Shown here piece after piece: positions 1-64,000 of a stretch of DNA of 64,000 nt (positions are counted from its first letter, which is position 1; each line of letters begins with the position of its first letter). Under the pieces are notes generated by a model. It ran no database searches, was not told where the DNA came from, and saw nothing but the letters and a program-made list of their open reading frames with translations. The DNA is from Eledone cirrhosa (Eukaryota): assembly GCA_964016885.1 (NCBI GenBank), contig OZ024756.1, forward strand, positions 43,400,001-43,464,000, in the 5' to 3' direction. A program made the position numbers and the translations under genes.

Positions 1-3000
1 CACTAGAGACAGAAATTGGACACCCACTAGAAACAGACATTGGACACACACACTACAGACAGACATTGGACACACGCTAGAGACAGACATTGAACACACT
101 AGAGACAGACATTGGACACACACTAGAGACAGACATTGGACACAGACACTTGACATATACATTGGACACACACAGTAGAGAAAGACATAGGACACACACT
201 AGAGACAGACATTAGACACACACTAGAGACAGACATTGGACACACACTAGAGACAGACATTGGACACACACTAGAGACAGACATTGGACACACTAGAGAC
301 AGACATTGGACACACACTAGAGACAGACATTGGACACACACTAGAGACAGACATTGGACACAGACACTAGAGACAGACATTGGACACACACAGAAGAGAA
401 AGACATTGGACACACACTAGAGACAGACATTTGACACACACTAGAGACAGACATTGGACACACACTAGAGACAGACATTGGACACAGACACTAAAGACAG
501 ACATTGGACACACACTAGAGACAGACATTGGACACACACTAGAGACAGACATTGGACACACACTAGAGACAGACATTAGACACACACTAGAGACAGACAT
601 TGGACACACACTAGAGACAGAAATTGGACACCCACTAGAAACAGACATTGGACACACACACTACAGACAGACATTGGACACACGCTAGAGACAGACATTG
701 AACACACTAGAGACAGACATTGGACACACACTAGAGACAGACATTGGACACAGACACTTGACATATACATTGGACACACACTAGAGACAGACATTGGACA
801 CAGACACTAGACACATACATTGGACACACACAGGAGAGAAAGACATAGGACACACACTAGAGACAGACATTAGACACACACTAGAGACAGACATTGGACA
901 CACACTAGAGACAGACATTGGACACACACTAGAGACAGACATTGGACACACATTAGAGTGAGACATTGGACACACACTAGAGACAGACATTGGACACACA
1001 CTAGAGACAGACATTTGACACACACAGTAGAGAAAGACATTGGACACACACTAGAGACAGACATTGGACACACACTAGAGAGAGATATTGGAGACACACA
1101 CTAGTGACCGACATTGGAGACACACACTAGAGACAGACATTGGACACACACTAGAGACAGACATTGGACACACACTAGAGACAGACATTGGACACACACT
1201 AGAGACAGACATTGGACACACACCAGAGACAGACATTGGACACACAATAGAGACAGACATTGGACACACACTAGAGACAGACATTAGACACACACTAGAG
1301 ACAGACATTGGACACACACTAGAGACAGAAATTGGACACCCACTAGAAACAGACATTGCACACACACACTAGAGACAGACATTGGACACACACTAGAGAC
1401 AGACATTGGACACACACTAGAGACAGACATTGGACACACACTAGAGACAGACATTGGACACACACTAGAGACAGACATTGGACACAGACACTAGACACAT
1501 ACATTGGACACACACAGTAGAGAATGACATAGGACACACACTAGAGACAGACATTAGACACACACTAGAGACAGACATTGGACACACACTAGAGACAGAC
1601 ATTGGACACACACTAGAGACAGACATTGGACACACTAGAGACAGACATTGGACACACACTAGAGACAGACATTGGACACACACTAGAGACAGACATTGGA
1701 CATAGACACTAGAGACAGACATTGGACACACACAGAAGAGAAAGACATTGGACACACACTAGAGACAGACATTTGACACACACTAGAGACAGACATTGGA
1801 CACACACTAGAGACAGACATTGGACACAGACACTAAAGACAGACATTGGACACACACTAGAGACAGACATTGGACACACACTAGAGACAGACATTGGACA
1901 CACACTAGAGACAGACATTGGACACACACTAGAGACAGATATTGGACACACACTAGAGACAGACATTAGACACACACTAGAGACAGACATTGGACACACA
2001 CTAGAGACAGACATTGGACACACAATAGAGACAGACATAGGACACACAATAGAGACAGACATTTGACACACACTAGAGACAGACATTGGACACACAATAG
2101 AGACAGACATAGGACACACACTAGAGACGGACATTAGACACACACTAGAGACAGACATTGGACACACACTAGAGACAGACATTGGACACACACTAGAGAC
2201 AGACATTGGACACACACTAGAGACAGACATTGGACACACACTAGAGACAGTCATTGGACACACAATAGAGACAGACATAAGACACAGACTAGAGACAGAC
2301 ATCTGAGACACACTAGAGACAGACATTGGAAACACACACTAGAGAGAAATCGACACACACTGGAGACAGACATTGGACACACACACTAGAGACAGACATT
2401 GGACACACACTAGAGACAGACATTGGACACACACTAGAGAGAGACATTGGACACACACAGTAGAGAAAGACATTGGACACACACTAGAGACAGACATTGG
2501 ACACACACTAGAGAGAGACATTGGACACACACTAGAGACAGACATTGGACACTGACACTAGTGACAGACATTGGACACACACTAGAGACAGACATTAGAC
2601 ACACACTAGAGACAGACATTGGACACACACTAGAGACAGACATTGGACACACACTCTAGAGACAGACATTGGACACACACTAGAGACAGACATTAGACAC
2701 ACACAAGAGATAGACATTGGACACACATCAGAGACAGACATTGGAGACACACTAGAGACAGACATTGGACACACACTAGAGACAGGCATTGGACACACAC
2801 TAGAGACAGACATTGGACGCACACTATAGACAGAAATTGGACACACACTAGAGACACACATTGGACACACACTAGAGACAGACATTGGACACACACACTA
2901 GAGACAGATATTGGACACACACTAGAGACAGACATTAGACACACACTAGAGACAGACATTGGACACACACTAGAGACAGACATTGGACACACAATAGAGA

Positions 3001-6000
3001 CAGACATAGGACACACAATAGAGACAGACATTTGACACACACTAGAGACAGACATTGGACACAGAATAGAGACAGACATAGGACACACACTAGAGACAGA
3101 CATTAGACACACACTAGAGACAGACATTGGACACACACTAGAGACAGACATTGGACACACACTAGAGACAGACATTGGACACACACTAGAGACAGTCATT
3201 GGACACACTCTATAGACAGACATTGGACACACACTAGAGACAGACATTTGACACACACTAGAGACAGACATTGGAAACACACACTAGAGAGAAATCGACA
3301 CACACTGGAGACAGACATTGGACACACACACTAGAGACAGACATTGGACACACACTAGAGACAGACATTGGACACACACTAGAGAGAGACATTGGACTCA
3401 CACAGTAGAGAAAGACATTGGACACACACTAGAGACAGACATTGGACACACACTAGAGAGAGACATTGGACACACACTAGAGACAGACATTGGACACTGA
3501 CACTAGGGACAGACATTGGACACACACTAGAGACAGACATTAGACACACACACTAGAGACAGACATTGGCCACACACTAGAGACAGACATTAGACACACA
3601 CTAGAGACAGACATTGGACACACACTAGAGACAGACATTGGACACACACTCTAGAGACAGACATTGGACACACACTAGAGACAGACATTAGACACACACA
3701 AGAGACAGACATTGGACACACACTAGAGACAGACATTGGACACACACTAGAGACAGACATTGGACACACACTAGAGACAGACATTGGACACACTCTATAG
3801 ACAGACATTGGACACACACTAGAGACAGACATTGGACACACACTAGAGACAGACATTGGACACAGACACTAGACACATACATTGGACACACACAGTAGAG
3901 AAAGACATTAGACACACACTAGAGACAGACATTGGACACACACTAGAGACAGACAGTGGACACAGACACTAGAGAAAGACATTGGACACACACTACAGAC
4001 AGGCATTAGACACACACTAGAGACAGACATTGGACACACACTAGAGACCGACATTGGACACACACTAGAGACAGACATTGGACACACACCAGAGACAGAC
4101 ATTGGACACACACTAGAGACAGACATTGGACACACACTAGAGACAGGCATTGGACACACATTAGAGACAGACATTGGACACACACGCTAGAGACAGACAT
4201 TGGACACACACTAGAGACAGACATTGGAGACACACTAGAGACAGACATTGGACACACACTATAGACAGACATTGGACACACACTAGAGACAGACATTGAA
4301 CACACACTAGAGACAGACATTGGACACACACACTAGAGACAGACATTGGACACGGACTAGAGACAGACATTGGACACACACAGTAGAGAAAGACATTGGA
4401 CACAGTCTAGAGATAGACATTGGACACACACTAGAGACAGCCATTGGACACACACTAGAGGCAGACATTGGACACAGACACTAGAGACAGACATTGGACA
4501 CACACTATAAACAGACATTAGACACACACACTATAGACAGACATTGGACACAAACTAGAGACAGACATTGGACACAAACTAGAGAGAGACATTGGACACA
4601 CACTAGAGACAGACATTGGACACACACTATAGACAGACATTGGACACACACTAGAGACAGACATTGGACACACACTAGAGACAGACATTGGACACACACA
4701 CTAGAGACAGATATTGGACACACACACTAGAGACAGACATTGGACACACACACTAGAGACAGACATTGGACACACACACACTAGACAGACATTGGACACA
4801 CACCAGAGACAGACATTGGACGCACACTAGAGACAGACATTGGACACACACTAGAGAGAGACATTGGACACACACTAGAGACAGACATTGGACACACACT
4901 AGAGACAGACATTAGACACACACAAGAGACAGACATTGGACACACACTAGAGACAGGCATTGGACACACACTAGAGACAGACATTGGACACACACTAGAG
5001 ACAGACATTGGACACACACCAGAGACAGACATTGGAGACACACTAGAGACAGACATTGGACACACACTAGAGACAGACATTGGACACACACTAGAGACAG
5101 ACATTGGACACACACTAGAGAGAGACATTGGACACACACAGTAGAGAAAGACATTGGACACACACTAGAGACAGACATTGGACACACACTAGAGACAGAC
5201 ATTGGAAACACAATAGAGACAGACATAGGACACACAATAGAGACAGACATTTGACATACACTAGAGACAGACATTGGACACACAATAGAGACAGACATAG
5301 GACACACACTAGAGACAGACATTAGACACACACTAGAGACAGACATTGGACACACACTAGAGACAGACATTGGACACACACTAGAGACAGACATTGGACA
5401 CACACTAGAGACACACTCATTGGACACACAATAGAGATAGACATAGGACACAGACTAGAGACAGACATTTGACACACACTAGAGACAGACATTGGAAACA
5501 CACACTAGAGAGAAATCGACACACACTGGAGACAGACATTGGACACACACACTAGAGACAGACATTGGACACACACTAGAGACAGACATTGGACACACAC
5601 TAGAGAGAGAGACATTGGACACACACAGTAGAGAAAGACATTGGACACACACTAGAGACAGACATTGGACACACACTAGAGACAGACATTGGACACACAC
5701 TAGAGAGAGACATTGGACACACACTAGAGACAGACATTGGACACTGACACTAGTGACAGACATTGGACACACACTAGAGACAGACATTAGACACACACAC
5801 TAGAGACAGACATTGGACACACACTAGAGACACACATTAGACACACACTAGAGACAGACATTGGACACACACTAGAGACAGACATTGGACACACACTCTA
5901 GAGACAGACATTGGACACACACTAGAGACAGACATTAGACACACACAATAGAGACAGACATTGGACACACACTAGAGACAGACATTGGACACACACTAGA

Positions 6001-24890: not shown

Positions 24891-25256
24891 TTTTTACAGA
24901 CTTTGGTGGGGATTTTTCGTTATTTGTGGCACACTGAAAATTTGTTGCATCTTCGCAATTAGGGTTATTTTTCCAGCACTGATACTCTCCATTCCATCCC
25001 TTATTTGCTGGTATTTTACAGTCAAAACCAGGTGTAACTACTCCTCTCTGAAATACTGTTTTATCTTTGTTGTAATTAAATTGTAAAACCTGAGTTCCAT
25101 TTCGTAGGAGTCTCAAGACAGTTACCACATTTAAGTCACCAGTTAGCTTACATGTTATATTTATTCTAGCTGATGATCCAACTTCAAATTCAGGTGTTAT
25201 ATTTATTCTAGCTGATGATCCATCTTCAAATTCAGGTGTTATATTTAGTGATACCC
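24891..25256 (-). CDS. Gene 2 exon: N-terminal V-like immunoglobulin domain, 366 nt, phase 1-1
   Basis: Acceptor cttccatattttatatatag|GG and donor AAA A|gtaagt. Translation VSLNITPEFEDGSSARINITPEFEVGSSARINITCKLTGDLNVVTVLRLLRNGTQVLQFNYNKDKTVFQRGVVTPGFDCKIPANKGWNGEYQCWKNNPNCEDATNFQCATNNEKSPPKSVK has a B-strand ITC and an F-strand D-x-x-x-F-x-C, Leu at the usual Trp position, and extra Cys. Confidence 0.82.
25153..25247. repeat. In-frame 42-bp tandem duplication inside the V-like exon
   Basis: tgttatatttattctagctgatgatcca(a/t)cttcaaattcagg starts at 25153 and 25195, with a partial third copy at 25237. One substitution (D/V) separates the two full copies. Confidence 0.95.
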
Positions 25257-26639
25257 CTATATATAAAATATGGAAGAGCAGAAAATGATTAGACAAAGAT
25301 TTATTTAAAAAATAACATATATAATGGCAGGTAGAGAATAACTAAGACGGAGAAGAAATCAATAATAGAAAAAGGAGAGAAAATACAGTTGTGAATGATA
25401 AAATAAGGAGAAGTTGTGAATGATAAAACTGAAGATGAAAAAGAAGAGGAGAAAGAAAAAAAATGAAAAAGAAAAAAGAAGAAAAAAGGTGAAGAAGAAG
25501 AAAGACAAAGAAGAAGAATCATGTAGACTGATGGAGAGAAACATGGAGTATGAGATGGTGTGTGTGTGACAGTAAAATGTGTATCTCCTTTGTTAGATTG
25601 GTTTCCCCATTAGAGGTAAGTCGGGTCAGGTGACCATGCCTTTCTCATATAGAACTATTTCTGGCTAGGTTTCTACAGCTGGATGCCCTTCATATTTGTA
25701 GTGTGGTGAGTACTTTTTGTTGTGACACCTACATGACCACTGTAGTTATATATACAACGTTGACTGGTAACTCTGAAGATATGTGCTAACATTTATTGCA
25801 TTTACAGAAAGTTTTTAATGTTTTATGTTGGCAATTGAAGATTCAATCATGCTAGGAATTTTGTAGGTCCTTTCCAGTTACTTTGGGGCCACGCTGTATA
25901 TTGGAAATTGGAAATGTTCAAACCTTTTAAAAGTTTCTTTCGTTCTGTGTGATCTGTAGAATTGACGTGACTTAGCGTCTAAGGAAATCCGGGGGAAAAA
26001 ACCCCTACAGAAAAATCCAGAGAGTCAGAAAAAAGGACAATCAGGCAGATAGGTAGAGTTATAGTTGACTAATATCTGACATCCCTTGGGACCGGAGGTG
26101 TAACTAGGTAAAATAGCATTTATGGCAAGCAATGAAATTCTGCCAAAACAACTGACACCCATCTTTCTTTTAGATAACCATGAAATCAGCTCAAAAATAC
26201 CAATCACGCCGTTGTGAAATAACTATATATATATATATCATAACCAGATCAATGATGATACATAGTCATCTGATCCAGAAATATTATACGGAGTAGCGAA
26301 ACAATTGTAAACGGGCATTATTATTATTATTATTATTCTCTACATTCCTTACATCAAACTAACTATGTTGACAATCTTTTAATAATGTCTTCCTTGTGAA
26401 ATTTGTGGTCTTGTTTTGCTTAACTAATGAATATTTCCAGCTCTGCGCACCTAACCTCTGCATGAACCCAGCCACCTAGCTGCTTTCTACTGCATATTGC
26501 ACATTGAGCACATGTCTTTACGCTTTGGCTTCTAACTAACTCACCAATCTTTCCTCTCATATCTCCTCTACTATCTCAATCTCTCTCTTTAAGACTGGTT
26601 ACTCTTGAACTGTGTATATGTATAATATATATATATGTA

Positions 26640-27566: not shown

Positions 27567-27645
27567 GAGAGAGAGGGAGGTGGAGTGTGTAAAAGACAGA
27601 GAGAGCAACATGGGGAAAATTAAATTGTCTTTTGTCTTAACTTAC

Positions 27646-27766
27646 CGCCTGAAGTGGAACGAGCCATCATCATCATCACCATAACTATTACCATAGTCCT
27701 CAACAGGTTGGGCAGAAATAAGCGCCGACTGCCCCCATCAACAGTTGTAATATAACAGCAAGACAT
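27646..27766 (-). CDS. Gene 2 first coding exon: signal/leader peptide, 121 nt, ends in phase 1
   Basis: ATG at 27766. Translation MSCCYITTVDGGSRRLFLPNLLRTMVIVMVMMMMARSTSG has a basic n-region, a hydrophobic core and a small-residue cleavage region. Donor GGC G|gtaagt splices in frame to the exon at 25256. Confidence 0.78.
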
Positions 27767-29635: not shown

Positions 29636-32592
29636 CTATCGGCATCGTTTTGTTCTAGCAGTGACACAGAGAATCAAAATGATATGCGTTCGGTCAGCAG
29701 CCAGTTGCACAACGTCCCGCCATTGTCTGTTTGTCGCTCGCAGGTCCCTCTCAACTGTCTGGCGCCAGTTCATTTTGAGTCGCCCTCTTCGTCTGCTTCC
29801 CTGTGGGTTCCATTTAAGTACTTGGTTCGCCAGTCTCTCCGGGGGAAGTCTCAAAGCGTGCCCAAACCAGCCCAGGCGTCGCTTGCAGATGGCAGAAGAG
29901 ACTAGCTGCTGGTTGGTGCGGTTCCTGACTTCCTGGTTTGTTACATGGTCACTCCATTTAATCCTCAGGATCTTTCGCAGACACCTGGAATCGAATGCGT
30001 CCAACTTCTTCTTTTGGCTGGTCTTAAGTACAAGAGTGTGGACAGCACGTTGCTGTTGTAGAATCTCATCTTTGTTTTGAGGGTGAACTTCCTGATCTTC
30101 CAGATCTTGACAAGCTGGTTAAATGCTGCTGAAGCCTTTCCCATTCTACATTGCAAATCACTGACCATGGCGCCCCCATTATCAATGGAGCTTCCTAAGT
30201 AGGTGAAGTTGTCCACTATCTCCACCTCCCCCTGTTCAATGAAAACACTAGTTGGTGATGGGTGTGTCCCAGATAACATGCTTTTGGTCTTCTTAGCACT
30301 GATATTGAGACCTAAGCTTCCTGCTTCGACATTGATATTGTTCATAATGATTTGCAGGTCAGCTGTGCTCTCTGCAAGTGCAACAATATCGTCCGCAAAG
30401 TCCAGGTCAGACAACTTTTGCTCTCCCACCCAAGATATACCCTGGTCTTTAGACGCTCTTCTTAGTATCCAGTCAATGGCTATGGCAAAGAGAATTGGAG
30501 AGAGCGAGCAACCCTGACGCACACCAGTAACCACCCCAAACCAGTCACTGTAACCATCCTCTGTCCGTATGCAGCACTTGGAGTTTGCGTAAATCTGTTT
30601 GATTGCCGAAATGACTTTCTGGGGCAGACCATACTCATGCATGATGCTCCAGAGTGACGGTCGATGAATGCTATCGAATGCTTTGGAGAAATCGATGAAG
30701 CTGACGGCGAGGGGCCTCTGGAATTCGTTGTACCTCTCAATGATGCGACGTAACGTAAAGATCTGCTCTGCACAGGAACGTTTTGGTCGGAACCCTGCCT
30801 GTTGTTCTCGCAGTTCCCGGTCTACCATGCCACGTATGCGGTTCAGGATCATCAGACAATAGACCTTCCCTGGTATGGAGAGAAGTGTCACTCCCCTCCA
30901 GTTGTCACAATCGGCAAGGTTGCCCTTCTTGGGGATACAGACAACCGCTCCGTTTCTCCAATCTTCTGGGACTTCACCCGTGTTCCACACAAGATTACAT
31001 AAGTGGCCCATCAACTTGACCATGCTTTCGCCTCCTGACTTCAGCATTTCAGCAGAAATGCCATCCATACCTGGTGACTTGTTATTCTTAAGGGTTTTGA
31101 TGGCCATGCGGACTTCCTTCTCGGTGAAGTCATCAGTATTGATAGGCAACAAACTAGTAGGTTCCTTAGTGTCTGCTGGCACACATGACTCCGGTCGGTT
31201 GAGGACTTCCTTGAAATGTTCAGCCCATCTGACTAACTTTTCTTCACCCTTGGAAAGCAGCGTACCATCTTTCGCTTTCACCGGGCCTGAGTTAGCTCTA
31301 GAGCTGCCGGTGATTTTCTTGGCAATTTGGTACACAGAGCGCATGTCATTGCGTGCCGCAGCTGCTTCCGCCTCCACTGCCTTACCCTCAAGCCACATTC
31401 GTTTGTCATTTTGGGCGCTGCGTTTCACCTCCTTGTCCTTGTCAACATACTGCTGATATACCTTGATGGCCTCTGGGGTAGTGGCATGCCTCTGCTGGTG
31501 TAGGGCTTTCCTTTCATTAATCAGCTGCCAGGTGTTGTCGCTGACCCAAGCTTCTCTGAGGGACTTCCTGTAGCCCAGGATTTCTTCCCCTGCAGCTTCC
31601 ATGGTCTTCTTCATTTCCTCCCACCAATTGACCGAGCCTGGTGCAGACTCCTCAAGGACAGCAAATCTGTTCCTCAAAGCAGCCTCGAACTGTGCTTCTG
31701 TGTCACCGTTCTTCAGCTTGGTAGTGTCGAAACGCCTTGTAGTGAGTGCTCTCTTCTTCTGCCTCCTCAGTCTGATTTTAAGTTTGGTAACAGACAGATA
31801 GTGGTCACTGCAGACATCTGCGCCCCGGTAGACTCGGACGTCCTGCAGGCAAGAAGCTCTCCAACTTGGGCCAATCGCAATGTGGTCTATTTGCGTCTTG
31901 GTCCTGTGGTCGTTCGAAGCCCATGTGACCTTGTGGATGTTCTTGTGGTCAAATAGTGACGAGCCGATTTTCATATTGTTCATGGCACAGAACTGGACAA
32001 ACCTGTCCCCGTTGTCCGTGCGGTTTCCATAAGCATGGGGGCCAAGGACATGTTCAAAGCCAACCCTGCTTCCCCCGATCTGTGCGTTCATGTCTCCCAT
32101 GATGATCAGGATGTCATGACGTGGGGTTTTGTTTACAAAATCTTGTAGTTGCTGGTAGAAAGCGTCCTTGTCATCATCGTTATGTTCGTTGGTTGGAGCA
32201 TAGCACTGAGCTATGGTGACCTTTGCATGTGATATGGTGAATATTGCTGTCATTAGGCGTTCGTTGATAGGAGTCCACTCCTCAAGGGCACCACTGGCAG
32301 CCCTGTCCATGATGATTGCAACTCCATCTCGGTGGGTCCCGTTCTGACGGCCTGAGAACAGGATGGTCTTGTTTTCATGGACAAATTTCCCAGAGTCAGT
32401 TCAGCGGATCTCGCTGAGGGCCAGGATATTAATTTTGTAGGCCTCCATTTCTCCGATAACTTGCGCAAGTTTGGATGGTTGGTACATAGTTCTTATGTTC
32501 CAATATCCAATACGTGTGGTTGTTTTTGCAGACAGAATTCTGGTCCTCAGGATGTCGGCTTCCTCATTGAAACTTTCGCCGACACCCGTCAT
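29636..32592 (-). pseudogene. RTE endonuclease/reverse transcriptase ORF, disrupted by one nonsense codon and one frameshifting deletion
   Basis: ATG at 32592 (MTGVGES...). An in-frame TGA at 32401-32403 sits where Trp is expected in SEIRW, and the same frame continues into ORF 29965-32310. Near 30030 the usual LLYG.E.W motif is cut after LLY and the frame shifts to LKTSQKKKLDAFDSRCLRKIL, ending at the stop at 29636. Confidence 0.9.
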
Positions 32593-32883
32593 ACAATCTC
32601 CGGTTAGAGACAACCGTTCTCCTCACTGCTTGGAATTTAAATCTGATGCACTATGAATTGTTTTCGTAGCAAGAGAGTTTTTCCGGGAACAGGTCGCTAG
32701 CCTGAAGCCCAACCACTGACATTTAGTAAAGAGACAGTCAGTGGAGTAGTCTCTGGTAGAACTGCAAACCGATGGCTACGGAATATGGTGTGGGTCGCCT
32801 TCAGTCCTGGACCGGTGCCGAGGGAGGATTTCCTTCTGCTTTAACGAGTACGGCCACTACCTTATATCCATGTAGGAGAACCC

Positions 32884-35028: not shown

Positions 35029-35424
35029 AACGAAGAATGATAAAATTTCAAGCAAAGAGTTTAATTAGGTATATTTTGTAATATTATTAACTAATTATTA
35101 TAATTAACGCGCATATTTTGCTATCCTCAAACACGTTTACACATGGCATGAAATATAACTAATCCGAGATGGCTAGGTTTCATCTTCTAACTGGATATAC
35201 GAAATCCATTATGTCTTGACAACAACACGAGGTAACATTATGTTATTCACAGACACACTTTGTACACTGTTCCATATCAGAATGTATTTCCTTCGTCACA
35301 TTCACAAACAGTATTGAAAATATGTTCTTCGGCAAATAAAAATGTTTTGTTCATAATATTTCAACTAGCGATTGCTCTACTCCACGCACGACCACCATAA
35401 ATTAATGACCAGCTCAACACAAGT

Positions 35425-35590
35425 ATTGGTAGAGCGTCAGACACCATGCTTTGCAGTATTGTTATGGTCCTTTGCATTCTAAGTTCAAATCCTGCCGAGG
35501 TTAACTTCGACTTTCATACTTACTAATTCGATAAAATAAAGTACCAGTAATGGACTGCCGTAATGGATTTGTGCCGAAAAATAGAAACAC
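35425..35590 (+). mobile_element. SINE copy, diverged
   Basis: ggtagagcgtcagacaccatgc...gttcaaatcctgccgaggttaac...cgataaaataaagtaccagtaat. Further fragments lie at ~34560-34610, ~37597-37700 and ~39990-40220. Confidence 0.75.
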
Positions 35591-36145
35591 TATTAATGTG
35601 CAATAAGAGCAAAATATAACGACATTGCTCAATTATTTTATCTAATGTTGTAATAACACAAGGAAATGTTGTTTGTGTATTTTTTTTTATATTTGCTCAT
35701 AGGCTTTTACAATTTCGCTCAGCCAACAACTATTAAAAAGTGAGTTGCTTAAGATAACAATTTAATCACAAATTGTTGCTATCTTTTAATACACTCCAAC
35801 AAGTCATCAAATTATGTACAATAAAAACAAATCTTATTAATTTGCTCAGGGAATATAAAGAAAATGTATATACACTGATAATTGCAATTGTATGTAAATA
35901 TTTTGTTTTTGTATTGTATATTTTATGTTTTCTATTATGTATAATATATTGATTTAATATTGATTGTTTTTTGTAGTTGTTTATATTAAAAGTCTGAAAA
36001 TATTTTTATACATCTTACACTAATATTTATAAGATAATTTATAATAACAATTACATAATCTAATTACATTACAACGATAATTTATTATTAATATATATCC
36101 TGTTTAACTAGAGTTATTACAAGCGTTGCCTTAAAAAAATATTAA

Positions 36146-37102
36146 ACTAGACATGAAAAATGCGCAAGCTCAAAAGTGCCACAGAATGTTATAATAAACC
36201 TTCAAAAGTGTGGGACTAGAGTTGTTGCTAAAAAATATTGTAATCATTATATATCGTACATTCTGTGGCATCCTTTATAAAAATAGCTTAAACCAACGAA
36301 GCCTTTATTTTTACGCTATTTCACTTAGTTAATTCTTAGAGTGTAACATATAAAAATAAATACATCTATGTTTAATGTAATAACAGCTATAAATAATTAC
36401 GTAATATTATTATCATATACTCATAGTAACAAAATAATTGTGTTGAAACTTAATATGATGCTTATATGAACGATCAAATCTATAATGATAATTTCTTAAA
36501 TATACTAATAGTAAAATAATTTAGTTATCTATTGTTACATTTTCATAGAACTATAATATTAACAATCGTATTGCATTATCAAATTTTTATCACTACAAAC
36601 TTTCATATTGGAATTACCTTAAGCCACTTATTATTACTTCGCTTTCGTACTTTTACAGCTGTAGATATTGCGCTGTATCTTATATCTAATATCAATATCT
36701 CGTGGTAATTTGCATGAAGTGTAAAATAGGTTTATTAATAACTTTAATATGAAATGTATTATACAGGGCTGCGGAGTCGGCCAAAAATTGACTGGCTCCA
36801 ACTCAGGATCCGATACTCCATTATTTCCTAAATTTCAGCTCCGCAGCTCTGTTATTATATTAATTAATTTATTTTATAGTTGTAAATCATATTTTTATAT
36901 GTTACACTCTAAGAATTAACTAAGTGAAATAGCGTAAAAATAAAGGCTTCGTTGGTTTAAGCTATTTTTATAAAGGATGCCACAGAATGTACGATATATA
37001 ATGATTACAATATTTTTTAGCAACAACTCTAGTCCCACACTTTTGAAGGTTTATTATAACATTCTGTGGCACTTTTGAGCTTGCGCATTTTTCATGTCTA
37101 GT
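36146..37102. mobile_element. Non-autonomous foldback/MITE-like element with 213-bp terminal inverted repeats
   Basis: 36146-36358 is the reverse complement of 36890-37102, with no mismatch seen by eye. The interior is AT-rich and non-coding. The flanks atattaa/atattat are a near-match only. Confidence 0.88.
36764..36851. mobile_element. Small hAT-type MITE nested in the foldback element
   Basis: TIRs cagggctgcggag ... ctccgcagctctg, with 8-bp flanks gtattata / ttattata (7/8 identical). Confidence 0.75.
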
Positions 37103-38229: not shown

Positions 38230-38513
38230 TATAACATTATATATGGATAAAGAGAGAGAGTGAGAGAGAGAATTATAGTATTATTCAATTTCCGTTAGTG
38301 TAATCAATCAATTGTAGTCGACAGTAATGGTAGTGGTGTTGTAGTTTTTGTTATCGTTGGTAGTGGTGTGGTAGTCAACAGCAGTGGTGGTGGTAGTGGT
38401 GTTGCTGTCGTTGATAGTGTGGTAGTCAACAGTAATGGTGGTGGTGGTGGTGTTGTAGATTTTCTTGTTGTTGTTACCACTGTTGTTCTTTTTGTTCCTG
38501 TATGGGTTTTATC

Positions 38514-38530
38514 TCAATTGATGCTCAACC
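38514..38530 (-). CDS. Gene 1 probable terminal coding exon (W-L-S-I-N-stop)
   Basis: Strong acceptor tgttttgcttattttccaacag|GG TTG AGC ATC AAT TGA, phase-compatible with the micro-exon. It is followed by low-complexity CAA/CAC sequence and a candidate minus-strand AATAAA at 38205-38210. Confidence 0.55.
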
Positions 38531-39299: not shown

Positions 39300-39440
39300 A
39301 AGAGAAGACTGCGCTGGTATGGACATCTGATATGTATAGATGATGACCATTTGGTGAAAAAGTGCCGAGAAATCCCAGTTGAAGAAAGCTGCCGTAAGGG
39401 TAGACCAAGGACAACCTAAGCAGAGGTGATGAGAGCTAAT
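39300..39440 (+). mobile_element. Decayed RTE LINE 3' fragment
   Basis: Encodes RRLRWYGHL...GRPRTT-like motifs. A similar remnant (GRGRSKETWQEVV) lies at ~26850-26915. Confidence 0.6.
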
Positions 39441-39700
39441 GACAATTGAAGAGAAAATAAAACATACGGCAAGACATGTTTTTAAGGGAACAACTTAAAA
39501 GAAGAAATTAAAACTAACAAAATTGTTTAAGACTAGTGGTTTAAATTATATTTTCTTGTTTTAATGTTCTATATCATGTGGTAAGTGGTAACTAAATAAT
39601 TGACATCAGGAAGGGCATCTGGATGTAAAACATTGTCACAAAACATCACATACAAACATGATAGATGGAAAAGTCAACATAAAAACGATAATGTACTTAC

Positions 39701-39726
39701 ATTTCCTTCTCTTCACAACAAGACTT
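39701..39726 (-). CDS. Gene 1 micro-exon (26 nt, phase 2-1): basic juxtamembrane cytoplasmic peptide
   Basis: tttttaattag|AAGTCTTGTTGTGAAGAGAAGGAAAT|gtaagt continues the frame as (R)SLVVKRRK, a positive-inside cluster after the TM segment. Confidence 0.7.
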
Positions 39727-39826
39727 CTAATTAAAAAACTGTAGTTATATTTATATTAAATTTATCTGAAATCATTACAGCTTGTTAGAGAAAAATATTT
39801 AAATCTGAAAGTTGTATATTACTAAC

Positions 39827-39941
39827 CTGTTGACTCCTTTAACTGGTAAATAACAAAGAACTAAATAAAAAAAGACAAGTACGTTAAATGCTATAACTCC
39901 AAGGTTGATACCAGCAGTAGTTCCACGACTTGATTCACCAG
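39827..39941 (-). CDS. Gene 1 exon: transmembrane segment, 115 nt, phase 1-2
   Basis: Acceptor ttttctatcttgatag|CT and donor AAC AG|gttagt. In frame with the Ig exon: (T)GESSRGTTAGINLGVIAFNVLVFFYLVLCYLPVKGVN, with a hydrophobic stretch of ~22 aa. Confidence 0.8.
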
Positions 39942-40399
39942 CTATCAAGATAGAAAACAGGAGCAATATGTTTGTTTCTAATATAGCCACATGATTTCAA
40001 ATTTGGTGGGAGGGTTATAGTTGATTATATGAACCCCAGTATTTCACTGGTACTTTATTTTATCAATCCCAGAAAGGTGAAAAACCAAGTTGTCCTCAAC
40101 AGGATTTAAAGTCAGAAAGTATAGAACATTTTAAATAATTTTTTATACAAGGCCAACAATATAGAGGAAGAGGAGAGTCTATTTTCAACCCCAATATTTA
40201 ACTGGTACTTTATTTTATTAATCACAGCTTTGACACTACGGACATCTCATCAGAATGTCTCAAGAACTAATCACCGGACTGATTTTATGGGGGCAAAACT
40301 AAACGGCAAGAGACCCAAGTGTAGACACCTAGCAAGATGTTTGGATAACATCCATGAGCTTAGCTGGTCTCACTTGGAGATCCAGCCAAATCAGTTGGA

Positions 40400-40740
40400 G
40401 ATACAGTGTGTGCTGGGTATTTTTGTTACGACACCTACATGACCAATTTACAGTGTGGATTGGGTACTTTTGGTCGTTGCTCCTACACGACCACTTTACA
40501 GTGTGTGCTGGAAGCTTTTTGTTGTGACACTTACATTACCACTTTACAGTGTAAGCTGAGAGCTTTTGTTGGGACACCTACATGACCACTTTACAGTGTA
40601 AGCTGAGAGCTTTTGTTGGGACACCTACATGACCACTTTACAGTGTGGGCTGGGTGCCTTTTACTAGGCACCAAAACACTCAACTGCCAGTTTGGACTGG
40701 GCGCATTTCGTTGTGACACCTATATGACAACTTTACACCA
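40400..40740. repeat. ~47-bp minisatellite, 6-7 copies, in the Ig-TM intron of gene 1
   Basis: ttttgttgggacacctacatgaccactttacagtgtaagctgagagc occurs at 40564 and again from 40611, with diverged neighbours. Confidence 0.85.
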
Positions 40741-41061
40741 TAGACGTGGGTCTAAGGTGAGACCTTAATTGTGTCAGTGATAATGAAGGTGATAGAGTGG
40801 TTACAATGATGATGATCATGAACATGGTTGTAGTGGCAGTCATAGTGATAGAAGTTAAACTGATCAAGATTATGAAAGTATAAATCCAAACACAAACACA
40901 GCAGTTCAGAAATATGTACACACTTAATCAAATATATGAATAATTATGTATTTTAAACATATACATACCTCACATGGAAACATACAATCATGCATATATA
41001 CACACATGCATGTATTGATAGAGGCAGACATGTATATAAAAATATGGAGTGATGCAGTGAC

Positions 41062-41171
<110 letters not shown>

Positions 41172-41215
41172 ATACACACACAAATGTAATACATAAAAGA
41201 AAATGATTTGCTTAC

Positions 41216-41530
41216 TTTTATCTTTAATGTAGACTACAAAGTCAAGTTCCATTTTAAATACTGAACAGGTGATGGTTATATCGGGGTAGTCTGCAATTGT
41301 TACGTTGTAGTCAAACTGTGACTCTAATGAAACATAACAGTTGTTAGTTTTTGGAACATTCACAGTTTCTAGACTGACTGCTGTTTCGTTACTTCCATGT
41401 GTTACACTCCATTTAAACAGGACAATCTCTTCAGAATTTGGGACAAGATTTAAATGACATCTGAAGGTAGATATCTGGTTAATTTTGTGGTTCTCAGTGT
41501 CAGACATCAGATCTTTCATAAAAGATTTCA
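41216..41530 (-). CDS. Gene 1 exon: C-type (C2-like) immunoglobulin domain, 315 nt, phase 1-1
   Basis: Acceptor ttttctcttttcag|TG and donor AAA A|gtaagc. Translation [104 protein letters not shown] shows the Ig pattern C...W...(ITITC) and N-glycosylation sequons NET and NVT. Symmetric phase-1 exons are typical of Ig domains. Confidence 0.85.
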
Positions 41531-41564
41531 CTGAAAAGAGAAAAAGTAAAATAAATAATTGCAA

Positions 41565-56500: not shown

Positions 56501-59500
56501 CATTGGACACACACTAGAGACAGACATCGGACACACACTAGAGACAGACATTGGACACACACTAGAGACAGACATTGGACACACACTAGAGAGAGATATT
56601 GGACACACACCAGACGCAGACATCGGACACACGCTAGAGACAAACATTGGACACACACACTTGAGAGAGACATTGGACACGCACTAGAGACAGACATTGG
56701 ACACACACTAGACAGACATTGGACACACACTAGAGACAGACATTGGACACACACTAGAGAGACATTGGACACACACTAGAGACAGACATTAGACACACAC
56801 TAGAGACAGACATTGAACACACACTAGAGACAGACATTGGACACACACTAGAGACAGACATTGGACACACACTAGAGACAGACATTGGACACACACTAGA
56901 GAGAGACATTAGACACACACTAGAGACATACATTGGACACACACTAGAGACAGACATTGGACACACACTAGAGAGAGACATTAGACACACACTAGAGACA
57001 TACATTGGACACACACTAGATACAGACATTGGACACACACTAGAGAGAGACATTGGACACACACTAGAGACAGACATTGAACACACACTAGAGAGAGACA
57101 TTGGACACACACTAGAGACAGACATTGGACACACACTAGAGACTGACATTGGACACACACTAGAGAGAGACATTGGACACACACTAGAGACAGACATTGG
57201 ACACACACTAGTCAGAGACATTTGACACACACTAGAGAGAGACATTGGACACACACTAGAGAGAGACATTGGACACACACTAGAGACAGACATTGGACAC
57301 ACACTAGAGACAGACATTGGACACACACTAGAGACAGACATTAGACACAGACTAGAGACAGACATTGGACACACACTAGTGAGAGACATTGGACACACAC
57401 TAGAGACAGACATTGGACACACACTAGAGACAGACATTGGACACACACTAGAGACAGACATTGGACACACATGAGAGACAGACATTGGACACACACTAGA
57501 CACACACACCAGAGACAGACATTGGACACACACTAGAGACAGACATTGGACACACACGAGAGACAGACATTGGACACACAGTAGAGACAGACATTGGACA
57601 CACACTAGACAGACATTGGACACACACTAGAGACAGACATTGGACACACACTAGAGACAGACATTAGACACACACTAGAGACAGACATTGGACGCACACT
57701 AGAGACAGACATTGGACACACACTAGAGACAGACATTGGACACACACTAGAAACAGATATTGGACACACACTAGAGACAGACATTGGACACACACTAGAG
57801 ACAGACATTGGACACACACTAGAGACAGACATTAGACACACATTAGAGACAGACATTGGACACACACTAGAGACAAACATTGGACACACACACTAGAGAG
57901 AGACATTTGACATGCACTAGAGACAGACATTGGACACACACTAGACAGACATTGGACACACACTAGAGACAGACATTGAACACACACTAGAGACAGACAT
58001 TGGACACATACTAGGGACAGACATTAGACACACACACCAAAGACAGACATTGGACACACACTAGAGACAGACAGTGGACACACACTAGAGACAGACATTG
58101 GACACACACACTAGAGACAGACATTGGACACACACTAGAAACAGACATTGGACACACACTAGAGACAGACATTGGACACACACTAGAGACAGACATTGGA
58201 CACACACTAGAGACAGACATTGGACACACACTAGAGACAGACATTAGACACACACTAGAGACAGACATTGGACACACACTAGAGACAGACATTGGACACA
58301 CACTAGAGACAGACATTGGACACACACTAGAGACAGACATTGGACACACACACTAGAGACAGACATTGGACACACACTAGAAACAGACATTGGACACACA
58401 CTAGAGACAGACATTGGACACACACTAGAAACAGACATTGGACACACACTAGAGACAGACATTAGACACACACTAGAGACAGACATTGGACACACACTAG
58501 AGACAGACATTGGACACACACTAGAGACAGACATTGGACACACACTAGAGACAGACATTAGACACACACTAGAGACAGACATTGGACACACACTAGAGAC
58601 AGACATTGGACACACGCTAGAGACAGACATTGGACACTCACTAGAAACAGACATTGGACACACACTAGAGACAGACATTAGACACACACTAGAGACAGAC
58701 ATTGGACACACACTAGAGACAGACATTGCACACACACTAGAGACGGAGATTGCACACAGACATTGGACACACACTAGAGAGAGATATTGGACACACGCTA
58801 GAGACAGACATTGGACACACACTAGAGACAGTCATAGGACACACACACTAGACACAGACATTAGTCACACACTAGAGACAGACATTGGACACACACTAGA
58901 GACAGGCATTGGACACACACTAGAGACAGACATTGGACACACACACTAGAGACAGACATTGGACACACACTAGAGACAGACATTAGACACACACTAGAGA
59001 CAGACATTGGACACACACTAGTGAGAGATATTGGACACACACACTAGAGACAGACATTGGAGACACACTAGAGACAGACATTGGACACACACTAGAGACA
59101 GACATCGGACACACACTAGAGACAGACATTGGACACACACTAGAGACAGACATTGGACACACACTAGAGAGAGATATTGGACACACACTAGACGCAGACA
59201 TCGGACACACGCTAGAGACAAACATTGGACACACACACTAGTGAGAGACATTGGACACGCACTAGAGACAGACATTGGACACACACTAGACAGACATTGG
59301 ACACACACTAGAGACAGACATTGGACACACACTAGAGACAGACATTGGACACACACTAGAGACAGACATAGGACACACACTAGAGACACACATTGGACAC
59401 ACACTAGAGACAGACATTGGACACACACTAGAGACAGACATTGGACACACACTAGAGACAGATATTAGACACACGCTAGAGACAGACATTGGACACACAC

Positions 59501-62500
59501 TAGAGACAGACATTGGACACACACTAGAGACAGGCATTGGAGACACACTAGAGATAGACATTGGACACACACTAGAGACAGACATTGGACACACACTAGA
59601 GACAGACATTGGACACACACTAGAGACGGACATTAGACACACACTAGAGACAGACATTGGACACACACTAGTGAGAAATATTGGACACACACACTAGAGG
59701 CAGACATTGGAGACACACTAGAGACAGACATTGGACACACACTAGAGACAGACGTCGGACACACACTAGAGACAGACATTGGACACACACTAGAGACAGA
59801 CATTGGACACACACAAGAGACAGATATTGGACACACAGTAGACGCAGACATCGGACACACACTAGAGACAAACATTGGACACACACACTAGAGAGAGACA
59901 TTGGACACGCACTAGAGACAGACATTGGACACACACTAGAGACAGACATTGGACACACACTAGAGACAGACATTGGACGCACAATAGAGACAGACATTGG
60001 ACACACACTAGCGACAGACATTGGACACACACTAGAGACAGACATTGGACACACACTAGAGACAGACATTGGACACACACTAGAGACAGACATTGGACAC
60101 ACACTAGAGACAGACATTAGACACACACTAGAGACAGACATTGGACACACGCTAGAGACAGACATTGGACACACACTAGAGACAGACATTGGACACACAC
60201 TAGAGACAGACATTAGACACACACTAGAGACAGACATCGGACACACACTAGAGACAGACATTGGACACACACTAGTGAGAGATATTGGACACACACACTA
60301 GAGACAGACATTGGAGACACACTAGAGACAGACATTGGACACACACTAGAGACAGACATCGGACACACACTAGAGACAGACATTGGACACACACTAGAGA
60401 CAGACATTGGACACACACTAGAGAGAGATATTGGACACACACTAGACGCAGACATCGGACACACGCTAGAGACAAACATTGGACACACACACTTGAGAGA
60501 GACATTGGACACGCACTAGAGACAGACATTGGACACACACTAGACAGACATTGGACACACACTAGAGACAGACATTGGACACACACTAGAGAGACATTGG
60601 ACACACACTAGAGACAGACATTAGACACACACTAGAGACAGACATTGAACACACACTAGAGACAGACATTGGACACACACTAGAGACAGACATTGGACAC
60701 ACACTAGAGACAGACATTGGACACACACTAGAGAGAGACATTAGACACACACTAGAGACATACATTGGACACACACTAGAGACAGACATTGGACACACAC
60801 TAGAGAGAGACATTAGACACACACTAGAGACATACATTGGACACACACTAGATACAGACATTGGACACACACTAGAGAGAGACATTGGACACACACTAGA
60901 GACAGACATTGAACACACACTAGAGAGAGACATTGGACACACACTAGAGACAGACATTGGACACACACTAGAGACTGACATTGGACACACACTAGAGAGA
61001 GACATTGGACACACACTAGAGACAGACATTGGACACACACTAGTCAGAGACATTTGACACACACTAGAGAGAGACATTGGACACACACTAGAGAGAGACA
61101 TTGGACACACACTAGAGACAGACATTGGACACACACTAGAGACAGACATTGGACACACACTAGAGACAGACATTAGACACAGACTAGAGACAGACATTGG
61201 ACACACACTAGTGAGAGACATTGGACACACACTAGAGACAGACATTGGACACACACTAGAGACAGACATTGGACACACACTAGAGACAGACATTGGACAC
61301 ACATGAGAGACAGACATTGGACACACACTAGACACACACACCAGAGACAGACATTGGACACACACTAGAGACAGACATTGGACACACACGAGAGACAGAC
61401 ATTGGACACACAGTAGAGACAGACATTGGACACACACTAGACAGACATTGGACACACACTAGAGACAGACATTGGACACACACTAGAGACAGACATTAGA
61501 CACACACTAGAGACAGACATTGGACGCACACTAGAGACAGACATTGGACACACACTAGAGACAGACATTGGACACACACTAGAAACAGATATTGGACACA
61601 CACTAGAGACAGACATTGGACACACACTAGAGACAGACATTGGACACACACTAGAGACAGACATTAGACACACATTAGAGACAGACATTGGACACACACT
61701 AGAGACAAACATTGGACACACACACTAGAGAGAGACATTTGACATGCACTAGAGACAGACATTGGACACACACTAGACAGACATTGGACACACACTAGAG
61801 ACAGACATTGAACACACACTAGAGACAGACATTGGACACATACTAGGGACAGACATTAGACACACACACCAAAGACAGACATTGGACACACACTAGAGAC
61901 AGACAGTGGACACACACTAGAGACAGACATTGGACACACACACTAGAGACAGACATTGGACACACACTAGAAACAGACATTGGACACACACTAGAGACAG
62001 ACATTGGACACACACTAGAGACAGACATTGGACACACACTAGAGACAGACATTGGACACACACTAGAGACAGACATTAGACACACACTAGAGACAGACAT
62101 TGGACACACACTAGAGACAGACATTGGACACACACTAGAGACAGACATTGGACACACACTAGAGACAGACATTGGACACACACACTAGAGACAGACATTG
62201 GACACACACTAGAAACAGACATTGGACACACACTAGAGACAGACATTGGACACACACTAGAAACAGACATTGGACACACACTAGAGACAGACATTAGACA
62301 CACACTAGAGACAGACATTGGACACACACTAGAGACAGACATTGGACACACACTAGAGACAGACATTGGACACACACTAGAGACAGACATTAGACACACA
62401 CTAGAGACAGACATTGGACACACACTAGAGACAGACATTGGACACACGCTAGAGACAGACATTGGACACTCACTAGAAACAGACATTGGACACACACTAG

Positions 62501-64000
62501 AGACAGACATTAGACACACACTAGAGACAGACATTGGACACACACTAGAGACAGACATTGCACACACACTAGAGACGGAGATTGCACACAGACATTGGAC
62601 ACACACTAGAGAGAGATATTGGACACACGCTAGAGACAGACATTGGACACACACTAGAGACAGTCATAGGACACACACACTAGACACAGACATTAGTCAC
62701 ACACTAGAGACAGACATTGGACACACACTAGAGACAGGCATTGGACACACACTAGAGACAGACATTGGACACACACTAGAGACAGACATTGGACACACAC
62801 TAGAGACAGACATTAGACACACACTAGAGACAGACATTGGACACACACTAGTGAGAGATATTGGACACACACACTAGAGACAGACATTGGAGACACACTA
62901 GAGACAGACATTGGACACACACTAGAGACAGACATCGGACACACACTAGAGACAGACATTGGACACACACTAGAGACAGACATTGGACACACACTAGAGA
63001 GAGATATTGGACACACACTAGACGCAGACATCGGACACACGCTAGAGACAAACATTGGACACACACACTAGTGAGAGACATTGGACACGCACTAGAGACA
63101 GACATTGGACACACACTAGACAGACATTGGACACACACTAGAGACAGACATTGGACACACACTAGAGACAGACATTGGACACACACTAGAGACAGACATA
63201 GGACACACACTAGAGACAGACATTGGACACACACTAGAGACAGACATTAGACACACACTAGAGACAGACATTGGACGCACACTAGAGACAGACATTGGAC
63301 ACACACTAGAGACAGACATTGGACACACACTAGAAACAGATATTGGACACACACTAGAGACAGACATTGGACACACACTAGAGACAGATATTGGACACAC
63401 ACTAGAGACAGACATTAGACACACATTAGAGACAGACATTGGACACACACTAGAGACAAACATTGGACACACACACTAGAGAGAGACATTTGACATGCAC
63501 TAGAGACAGACATTGGACACACACTAGACAGACATTGGACACACACTAGAGACAGACATTGAACACACACTAGAGACAGACATTGGACACATACTAGGGA
63601 CAGACATTAGACACACACACCAAAGACAGACATTGGACACACACTAGAGACAGACAGTGGACACACACTAGAGACAGACATTGGACACACACACTAGAGA
63701 CAGACATTGGACACACACTAGAAACAGACATTGGACACACACTAGAGACAGACATTGGACACACACTAGAGACAGACATTGGACACACACTAGAGACAGA
63801 CATTGGACACACACTAGAGACAGACATTAGACACACACTAGAGACAGACATTGGACACACACTAGAGACAGACATTGGACACACACTAGAGACAGACATT
63901 GGACACACACTAGAGACAGACATTGGACACACACACTAGAGACAGACATTGGACACACACTAGAAACAGACATTGGACACACACTAGAGACAGACATTGG
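41565..64000. repeat. 24-bp tandem satellite, right array (same monomer and orientation), runs off the window end; intronic, upstream of the C-type Ig exon of gene 1
   Basis: Same consensus as the left array. It begins abruptly at ~41565, about 33 bp from the splice acceptor at 41531-41532. Confidence 0.99.

Follow-up and report, generated by a model that had tools for sequence, protein, structure and literature searches.

The DNA analysed here is a stretch of 64,000 nucleotides (the window) from a single 3-Gb assembly of Eledone cirrhosa (GCA_964016885.1, contig OZ024756.1:43,400,001-43,464,000, forward strand). It contains parts of two different immunoglobulin (Ig) receptor genes, in that the V exon in the window belongs to gene B and the C exon to gene A:

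1-24702, plus strand: satellite array of 24-bp monomers filling the V1-C1 intron of gene B; its full length is 33.6 kb (C17:43,391,095-43,424,702)
24891-25256, minus strand: V-set Ig exon, V1 of gene B (phase 1/1)
27646-27766, minus strand: leader (signal peptide) exon of gene B, ending in a phase 1 donor and sharing homology with the LOC115221679 N-terminus of octopods
38514-38530, minus strand: candidate last coding exon of gene A, originally read as the stop exon, with plausible splice sites
39701-39726, minus strand: candidate 26-nt micro-exon with plausible splice sites
39827-39941, minus strand: derived transmembrane (TM) exon of gene A, one of six copies with a varying T-run
41216-41530, minus strand: C-type Ig exon, C3 of gene A (phase 1/1)
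41565-64000, plus strand: satellite array of 24-bp monomers filling the last V-C intron of gene A; its full length is 107.8 kb (C17:43,441,565-43,549,409)

Both arrays consist of the same 24-bp monomer in one orientation (88-90% matches), and their coordinates agree with the original prediction that each abuts an Ig exon: the right array ends 34 nt from the C exon, and about 190 nt separate the V donor from the start of the left array. The V donor and the C acceptor are canonical and both phase 1, so that the proposed joint PKSVK-M-KS would read in frame. Partner exons had been expected beyond both arrays. The C exon belonging to the left array indeed lies 9.5 kb left of the window and the V exon belonging to the right array 86 kb past it, but no leader precedes this right-hand V. 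The proposed gene layout leader-V-[satellite]-C-TM does not hold, as the window genes are instead of the (V-C)n type, with four and six Ig domains. Degenerate 26-bp precursor repeats lie between V1 of gene B and its array, and this V1 carries an N-terminal internal duplication otherwise present only in V1 of gene C.

The leader exon has 12 copies in the cluster, six of which are identical over 139-161 nt. An alternative leader at window positions 26,093-26,162 was rejected, as it has a weak donor and just five copies, and the orthologues match another exon (27,646-27,766). Likewise, a 658-aa repeat open reading frame within the array is a product of the 24-nt period and is interrupted by 22- and 26-nt monomers. 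Three sequencing runs (one sample) that cover the leader and V have the character of DNA, lacking splice joints, and are uninformative on expression.

The general architecture of the genes is leader-(V-C)x1-3-TM, with three V-C units in gene A, two each in B and C, and one in D; seven of these eight V-C introns hold an array. About 12 copies lie inverted beside a plus-strand founder of the structure leader-V-C-stalk-TM-long tail. This founder is the orthologue of octopod LOC115221679, which it matches in the tail exons including LHYAEL and a C-terminal motif. LHYAEL fits the ITIM pattern [ILVS]xYxx[IVL] as defined in the available part of PMC9546547. The ITIM exon and the second tail exon are single-copy within the fetched cluster, and a search for the distal tail exons in the inverted copies found them in none. 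The T-run of the TM exon comprises 7, 7, 8, 8, 9 and 9 T in the six copies, lengths which may include assembly errors; four copies stop inside or just past the hydrophobic stretch, while those of A and B continue in a shifted frame. In the founder, the micro-exon sequence follows the TM exon and precedes the first tail exon, with a stop in the founder's frame. The search found no copy of the candidate stop exon at the founder gene, and neither of these two small exons finds support in the orthologues. Taken at sequence level, this pattern suggests that the tail-less copies may be decoy or adhesion receptors, GPI-anchored or with a short tail, that work alongside an inhibitory founder.

The domain assignments rest on structural models, from which the window genes are predicted to be V-set plus C-type (C1 or C2) receptors of the Ig superfamily (IgSF). 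The V exon is predicted to adopt a V-set fold (AlphaFold2, pLDDT 72). Its structural matches (VIA-align) include antibody and TCR V domains, CD8, PVRIG and nectin-3 (Z 8-9, rmsd about 2.8 over 90-95 residues), nearly all of the best 50 are V domains (Z 7.7-9.1), and the Atlas also contains V-set look-alikes (0.88-0.91). The C exon is predicted to form a seven-stranded Ig-like sandwich (AlphaFold2, pLDDT 91) with invariant C24, W40 and C88, i.e., the B- and F-strand cysteines and the C-strand tryptophan. Its best IgSF match is SIRP-gamma domain 2 (Z 10.1, rmsd 2.4 over 97), ahead of which 14 non-IgSF sandwiches rank. Pfam gave no significant match for either window exon and a single "ig" match above cut-off among 14 relatives. 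Searching PDB sequences with alignments of V and of C returned nothing significant, and the family profile only weak PDB matches (best E 0.006: Fab light chains, CD22 and Fc receptors), a list from which CEACAM is absent.

A protein search with the V exon against longer proteins found no homologue, and an HMM search yielded 38 matches, of which all 20 looked up are octopod. The leader, V, C and TM of LOC115221679 (Octopus sinensis, O. vulgaris, Argonauta hians) are homologous to the E. cirrhosa genes, and its tail exons to the founder. Octopod V-C paralogues, all uncharacterised, comprise O. bimaculoides LOC106878948/52/54, LOC106880713/15 and LOC128250265-67, and O. vulgaris CAI9737731-38; they are grouped on one long contig per species, some are predicted as multi-(V-C) genes, and they share with E. 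cirrhosa the conserved V positions F-x-C, CWK and C-x-D-x-x-x-Y-x-C. The E. cirrhosa copies differ from the paralogues of other octopods in being a lineage-specific expansion of one gene, LOC115221679. Searches of main texts in the open-access literature found no description of the receptor family or the satellite, although supplementary gene lists could name the loci, and none of six locus identifiers of the octopod relatives is mentioned in that literature.

The ectodomains appear to evolve under diversifying selection. The pN/pS ratio is 1.94 for nine V exons and 2.23 for ten C exons, and V exons differ by 9.6% as against 1.1% in the adjoining 100 intron bases. These 19 exons contain no stops, where 5.3 and 4.3 would be expected (P 0.004 and 0.012). 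We have to weigh this against the possibility that the giant arrays have silenced or are killing the genes, A, B and C being recent pseudogenes of a birth-and-death cluster. Such decay would agree with the degraded TM exon of the young copies, with the broken or incomplete state of genes E, G and J, and with the roughly 34 pyrimidine-AG acceptor-like sites per kb on the sense strand. However, all V and C exons of genes A-D retain open frames and canonical splice sites, and the deficit of stops and the excess of pN over pS likewise speak against decay. Megabase satellite introns are moreover spliced in Drosophila, according to the available parts of PMC6508613 and PMC11207136, and we regard pseudogenization as improbable.

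As had been suspected, the satellite occurs only in V-C introns of this receptor cluster. Genome-wide mapping placed all 10,656 exact 24-bp monomers of the whole 3-Gb assembly inside the cluster, and all 4,278 exact 46-mers inside the fetched cluster; reverse-strand monomers are lacking, and a backwards control sequence gave zero matches. Arrays are present in seven of the 15 V-C introns examined, as against none of the 12 other introns of genes A-D. The seven arrays, of 0.3-493 kb each, make up 765,711 of 823,657 bp (93%) of the cluster core, whereas none of 20 flanking 10-kb tiles is pure satellite and the largest arrays there reach about 3 kb. Other repeats have also expanded in the cluster: one C-V intron contains 8.9 kb of a 46-mer, and a 21-mer has grown to 1.7 kb. 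Two distant family members, used as queries, match only this cluster, and hence there is no second cluster to serve as a control.

Array sizes or gene order could be assembly artefacts, and gaps of 200 N do occur within the largest array and next to the founder's leader. Yet the arrays show ordered, locally graded private variants instead of a collapsed consensus, and the tiles on either side of the array gap match each other best (0.21 and 0.14 versus at most 0.05 to other arrays). Summed V-exon contig depth is about 9-14 times single-contig depth, which is consistent with ten similar V exons but is a poor measure, coming from the three DNA-like, probably non-independent runs of one sample. 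An artefact of this kind is very unlikely.

The original prediction likened the arrays to antibody switch regions. Ig heavy-chain switch regions are long, strand-asymmetric direct repeats in the intron upstream of the C exons, 1-10 kb in length and rich in AGCT/WRC and G-rich targets of AID, by which alternative C genes come to share one V. The E. cirrhosa arrays are likewise long, strand-asymmetric direct repeats in an intron ahead of C exons, but the switch motifs are missing from the 108-kb array and every V has its own C. In this array AGCT does not occur, GGG is sparse (about 0.25-0.27 per kb) and WRC amounts to 3.5-6.8 per kb; its sense strand is 42% T and 24% G. Programmed somatic deletion, joining an upstream V to a downstream C/TM in single cells, would profit from the uniform direct orientation of all arrays and from the near-identical leader regions of different genes. 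It would also keep the frame across an inter-array deletion, because the inspected V donors and C acceptors of array-bearing units are all phase 1; a shared phase is, however, the ordinary state of Ig exons. No APOBEC_N (PF08210) match was found in the genome at E 0.001, a weak result, as this exon-by-exon search is insensitive and exon-split or divergent deaminases would escape it. Rearrangement is also unnecessary, given that every gene comes with a leader and partner exons of its own. We consider such a somatic switch hardly credible.

The arrays themselves preserve traces of their history. Precursor 12-mers occur at the same V-C intron offset in three array-free units (the founder and two X1 units), transitional monomers lie at the V-side array edges, and the C-side junction region is common to five of the seven arrays. 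We interpret this as an indication of a likely single origin of the 24-bp repeat from a degenerate 26-bp intronic repeat. Subsequent growth, in contrast to the paralogous flanks, which are 94-98% identical, left little similarity between arrays. The claim of tens of kb of near-identical sequence between arrays is contradicted by a longest exact match of 210 bp, the only one of at least 200 bp over all 21 array pairs, in a comparison that included 213 kb out of the 493-kb largest array. Exact matches inside the five large arrays reach 1.6-6.3 kb; similarity of 4-kb tiles is mostly 0.2-0.9 within arrays and at most 0.10 between them. Private variants are found in every array, together with internal kb-scale duplications peculiar to it, and exact-match and tile comparisons of the arrays found no tract moved from one to another. 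The arrays also contain a few abrupt internal changes, which correspond to nothing in the other arrays and carry no information. The arrays have thus likely expanded separately and in place in each gene copy, presumably through duplication inside the array, be it by unequal sister-chromatid or allelic exchange, by slippage or by conversion. Since fast turnover would erase older inter-array crossovers, the missing shared tracts exclude only recent exchange.

The V and C domains of the cluster have decoupled histories and have likely been reshuffled. Trees of V and C exons from 15 units are incongruent, as anticipated (AU p about 1e-6 to 1e-7 for congruence), but splitting the V exon into halves gives trees that disagree as strongly as those of V and C do, and units lacking the satellite are involved. 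We have therefore discarded the V-versus-C AU tests as decisive evidence, the half-exon control having likewise rejected congruence. Among 12 young units, the Mantel r is 0.74 and 0.84 within exons but -0.19 across the V-C intron. After correction, internal mosaicism is significant in two V exons and borderline in a third. Gene B is itself mosaic, with a change of ancestry across its array, so that the V-C intron served as a breakpoint interval at least once, as one of several exchange sites. A break there would be in keeping with the crossover proposed at the satellite to re-pair V and C; re-pairing is also seen in units without a 24-mer array, as divergent V with common C and as common V with divergent C.

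These data bear on the alternative that the satellite is a working part of the cluster, drawing most allelic and unequal meiotic crossovers into the V-C intron, uncoupling V from C, producing hybrid genes and copy-number change, and being kept or favoured for that. The strict confinement of the array to this intron and the lack of linkage across it are in line with such a role. So is the resemblance between two blocks, one running from gene A's C2 to gene B's V1 and the other from C1 of gene B to V1 of gene C (exons 98.7, 91.0, 97.1 and 97.1%; TM region 98%); both ends lie in V-C introns, as expected from unequal crossover. The C1 flank of gene B shares two short-repeat insertions with C2 of gene A which are absent from C1 of gene C, and most array pairs have dozens to nearly 200 exact matches of at least 100 bp. 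Against it stand the want of any long common tract, the re-pairing in array-free units, the discordance within V exons described above, and a switch in gene B ancestry from C-like (gene C) to D-like (gene D) near the V donor, outside the array. Satellite blocks also often suppress crossovers. We regard a working role as possible, but unlikely. Somewhat more doubtful still is that the locus-private satellite evolved as a recombination spacer, with meiotic exchange channelled between domains, V and C re-paired and domain number changed each generation, and the inhibitory founder kept array-free.

We favour, as probable though far from certain, in-place intron expansion ("stuttering") as a passenger in a germline-shuffled receptor cluster similar to CEACAM and KIR. 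The 24-bp repeat would have arisen once from the degenerate 26-bp intronic repeat, gene duplication would have handed the repeat seed on to the V-C introns of the copies, and the repeat would have expanded separately in each copy with the satellite riding as a passenger, while ordinary germline gene conversion and unequal crossover would have reshuffled the V and C domains. It counts against this explanation that a single unit has undergone six large expansions in one homologous intron, to sizes of 108-493 kb, which is extreme; such expansion could reflect selection or a special property of the repeat unit.

In birds, "sequence stuttering" (Hron et al. 2026, PMC12954441, as far as its available text goes) likewise involves imperfect local tandem repeats of tens of bases in single introns with intact exons. 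Most stuttering introns there have their own motif and lie on GC-rich dot chromosomes, whereas in E. cirrhosa seven paralogous units have one motif in their homologous intron, where it extends to as much as 493 kb without being GC-rich. A repeat seed inherited through gene duplication would explain one monomer in seven paralogous introns.

The cluster may work like a CEACAM-like paired or decoy set, with an ITIM member and tail-less relatives of similar ectodomains under diversifying selection and gene conversion. CEACAM genes have repeated constant-domain units. In E. cirrhosa the repeated unit is V-C and both domains have pN > pS, and the likeness is by analogy only. The available parts of PMC2832619 and PMC8860441 describe for mammalian CEACAM, as here, an ITIM-bearing founder, paralogues whose TM exon has stops or deletions, and positive selection with gene conversion of the N-terminal V domain; they describe no giant satellite. 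KIR hybrid genes (PMC2816608, in part) and sea-urchin Sp185/333 (PMC5103432, in part) similarly are tandem immune receptor genes with germline rearrangements, whose breakpoints fall within or next to intronic or flanking repeats. KIR breakpoints, however, map to Alu/MLT1 elements and the short tandem repeats of Sp185/333 flank the genes, unlike the locus-private intronic satellite of 100-kb scale, and both systems rest on population data where ours rests on one assembly. Hydractinia Alr, in the accessible portion of PMC9546547, is comparable as a clustered invertebrate IgSF family with an unusual V-set and ITIM/ITAM tails.

Almost no variable surface-receptor family has been described so far from cephalopods, and the main text of a 2025 review of invertebrate IgSF mentions neither octopus, squid nor cephalopod. 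The cluster offers such a family, and its ITIM founder, multi-domain copies without tails, mosaics and pN > pS are hallmarks of an arms race in recognition. It is also a rare natural experiment, in which seven homologous introns carry the same satellite at 0.3-493 kb beside array-free siblings. One locus thereby allows testing whether intronic satellites raise domain shuffling or ride along, and how transcription and splicing proceed across half a megabase of acceptor-like repeats.

The window spans the end of one Ig-receptor gene (gene A) and the start of the next (gene B), so that its V-set (V) and C-type (C) Ig exons belong to different genes. Its two satellite arrays are separated by 17 kb of unique DNA.

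Features of the window, in window positions
1-24,702: array of the 24-bp satellite
25,256-24,891, minus strand: V exon
27,766-27,646, minus strand: leader exon
29,636-32,622, minus strand: near-full-length LINE with an 811-aa open frame, between TM and leader exons
39,941-39,827, minus strand: TM exon
41,530-41,216, minus strand: C exon
41,565-64,000: second array, same monomer and orientation as the first

The V donor and C acceptor are canonical and in phase 1, as originally read. Pfam recognised neither the V nor the C exon of the window. The former is predicted to adopt a V-set fold and the latter a seven-stranded Ig-like sandwich, with which both the Atlas look-alikes and the weak PDB matches of the family profile (38 of 39 are Ig proteins) agree. 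The LINE, which we take from its motifs to encode an endonuclease and a reverse transcriptase, is interrupted by a single early stop and, close to the 3' end, by a break in frame; the alignments listed show no long copy of it between genes B and C. At window ~35,100-37,100 lies an A+T-rich element of 2 kb that contains long inverted repeats; it has an inverted copy, 99.5% identical, at 42.63 Mb of the contig OZ024756.1 (C17) and another, 97.6% identical, at 43.59 Mb, and is perhaps a recently mobile non-autonomous element.

The C17 sequence is 44.7 Mb long and ends about 1.2 Mb beyond the window. In the region analysed in full (C17 42.46-43.80 Mb), V and C exons have 17 matches each and the leader has 12 copies, together about 13 gene units. 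Gene models follow exon order and phase, and gene names were assigned in the present analysis.

Genes of the cluster and their 24-bp arrays
Gene A, minus strand: leader-V1-C1-V2-C2-V3-C3-TM; arrays of 4.1 and 107.8 kb
Gene B, minus strand: leader-V1-C1-V2-C2-TM; arrays of 33.6 and 114.6 kb
Gene C, minus strand: leader-V1-C1-V2-C2-TM; arrays of 12.4 and ~493 kb, the larger with one 200-N gap
Gene D, minus strand: leader-V-C-TM; array of 0.3 kb
X1, X2 and E-J, minus strand: other copies, either with 2 or 4 domains or broken

A uniform leader-V-satellite-C-TM layout, as originally predicted, is not borne out, since gene A has three V-C units and genes B and C two each. The partner exons expected past the arrays are present, a C exon beyond the left and a V exon beyond the right, but the latter is internal and lacks a leader of its own. 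Of the 12 copies of the leader exon with its flanks (window 27,600-27,760 and 11 others), eight agree at 99-100% identity, among them one from a gene with a V exon just ~41% identical at the protein level; the 5' ends of the cluster genes thus appear strongly homogenised.

The satellite is a genuine feature of striking size and is fully private to this locus. Genome-wide, all 4,278 exact 46-mers and all 10,656 exact 24-mers, every one in forward orientation, fall inside the analysed region, which upholds the suspected confinement. The seven arrays account for 765,711 of 823,657 bp and are restricted to V-C introns, where they occupy 7 of 15 examined (gene J left out) against none of the 12 other introns of genes A-D. 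The surroundings are repeat-rich, and none of 20 flanking 10-kb tiles consists purely of satellite. On the sense strand the monomer resembles a miniature 3' splice site, with a pyrimidine run and TAG at about 34 per kb, and a common variant carries a branch-point-like CTAAT; AG-GT and strong donors are almost absent from it, giving no clear sign of sites for recursive splicing. The C1-V2 intron of gene A contains an 8.9-kb expansion (C17:43,565,246-43,574,098) of an unrelated 46-bp repeat, which read depth shows to be abundant elsewhere and which has a 0.9-kb version past the C exon of gene E. The putative final exon of gene E contains 83 copies of a 21-bp repeat (C17:42,713,522-42,715,266); window 38,300-38,500 is related to this repeat and reads as a Thr/Pro-rich frame.

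Three array-free units, including the plus-strand founder gene at the right end of the cluster, carry related 26-55-bp units at the same intron position, over 1-2 kb or less. Transitional monomers occur along the V-side array edges, and five of the seven arrays terminate at or near one C-side junction, the other two having lost most of this flank. By these patterns, the 24-bp repeat likely arose once, in the V-C intron, and was passed on as a seed. The arrays are not, as had been supposed, near-identical over tens of kb: the longest exact match is 6.3 kb inside one array but 210 bp between arrays (using 213 kb of the largest), and between-array tile similarity stays at or below 0.10 even when the whole of the largest array is included. 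Perfect copies make up ~30-37% of the monomers, and both the variants and the internal duplications (0.2-13 kb) are private to the individual array. As the flanks of array-bearing genes are 94-98% identical while the arrays are private, the arrays likely grew or turned over after the gene duplications, at least six times. This fits intron stuttering as described in PMC12954441.

The proposed re-pairing of V and C exons among paralogues finds support in their trees, which reject each other (AU p ~1e-6 and 1e-7, 15 units; p <0.001 for the seven array units alone). Among 12 units, the two halves of an exon are correlated in pairwise identity (r 0.74 and 0.84), whereas V and C, on either side of their intron, are not (r -0.19); in the seven array units the V-half correlation is weak (r 0.32, p 0.08). 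We consider it rather unlikely that the satellite itself drove this shuffling, although fast array turnover would hide old crossovers and so leaves room for such a role. It would account for gene B, whose B_V1 is 97.1% identical to C_V1 while its B_C1 is 98.7% identical to A_C2, with which it shares two insertions, and for the similarity of two blocks, one running from the first array of A to the first of B and the other from there to the first of C, the outcome expected of unequal crossover in the V-C intron. However, the intron flank right after the V donor of B is D-like, a second ancestry switch outside the array, and mismatched types occur in units that lack a 24-mer array (divergent V with common C in X2 and the first unit of A, common V with divergent C in the founder and X1). 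Exchange also reaches into the V exon: after correction, A_V3 and C_V2 stand as internal mosaics and the founder V is borderline (the 7 top triplets of 612 were retested), and half-exon trees likewise reject each other, V5' against V3' as strongly as V against C. Judged from these sequence comparisons, exchange is pervasive in the cluster.

The suggested analogy with Ig switch regions, for which AGCT, G runs and WRC sites serve as a yardstick, stands for the layout alone. The 108-kb array lacks AGCT, is nearly devoid of G runs and is poor in WRC sites, and each array-bearing gene has its own leader and partner exons. A weak search of the genome for APOBEC_N gave no match. Somatic switching via the arrays is thus highly improbable.

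Of the 38 proteins matched by the V-exon HMM, 20 were traced to their records: all are uncharacterised, come from Octopus vulgaris, O. sinensis, O. bimaculoides and Argonauta, and lie mostly on one long contig per species. The O. vulgaris predictions P0001 and P0002 have 3-5 V-C repeats, P0001 also Thr-rich stalks, and V-C unit multiplication recurs in the family beyond the present species. The main texts of the open-access literature searched yielded no description of the receptor family or the 24-bp repeat. The founder is the orthologue of LOC115221679, with leader, V, C, stalk, TM and tail exons reaching 43,797,903. It ends in GSSV, which we take to resemble a PDZ-binding motif. One tail exon has LHYAEL, matching the ITIM consensus in PMC9546547. 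Within 42.46-43.80 Mb, this exon and the second tail exon occur once each; a remnant of the first tail exon is kept in four old copies. In six young TM copies either a TAG closes the founder frame or a T-run, 7-9 bases long, shifts it; four of these stop inside or directly past the hydrophobic stretch, and A and B continue in a new frame. In stop position the four resemble CEACAM GPI signals derived from TM exons, which end likewise near the hydrophobic stretch (PMC2832619). The candidate micro-exon and stop exon originally proposed would give an open frame in A and B only; in the founder, the micro-exon sequence precedes the first tail exon and would terminate translation there. X1 has two tandem TM exons, one of founder type and one stop-bearing, each followed by a micro-exon copy (C17:43,639,712-43,640,160), possibly an alternative anchoring. 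The first C exon of X1 (region C17:43,653,400-43,664,240) is 98.4% identical to that of the founder and is followed by a founder-stalk-exon copy; X1 lacks a leader, and a 200-N gap adjoins that of the founder. Either a recent inverted duplication or a scaffolding error may explain this arrangement.

pN/pS is 1.94 for nine V exons and 2.23 for ten C exons (codon bootstrap P 0.017 and 0/300, from pairs that are not independent). These sets exclude both divergent V exons, a V exon carrying a deletion, the divergent C exon and the old copies. V exons differ by 9.6% against 1.1% over the next 100 intron bases, and the 19 exons contain no stops, against ~5 (V) and ~4 (C) expected. Until recently at least, the cluster genes were functional. 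The best-supported mechanism, which we hold to be probable, is one in which an inherited intronic repeat would expand in place, gene copy by gene copy, and the CEACAM/KIR-like receptor cluster itself would be reshuffled in the germline.
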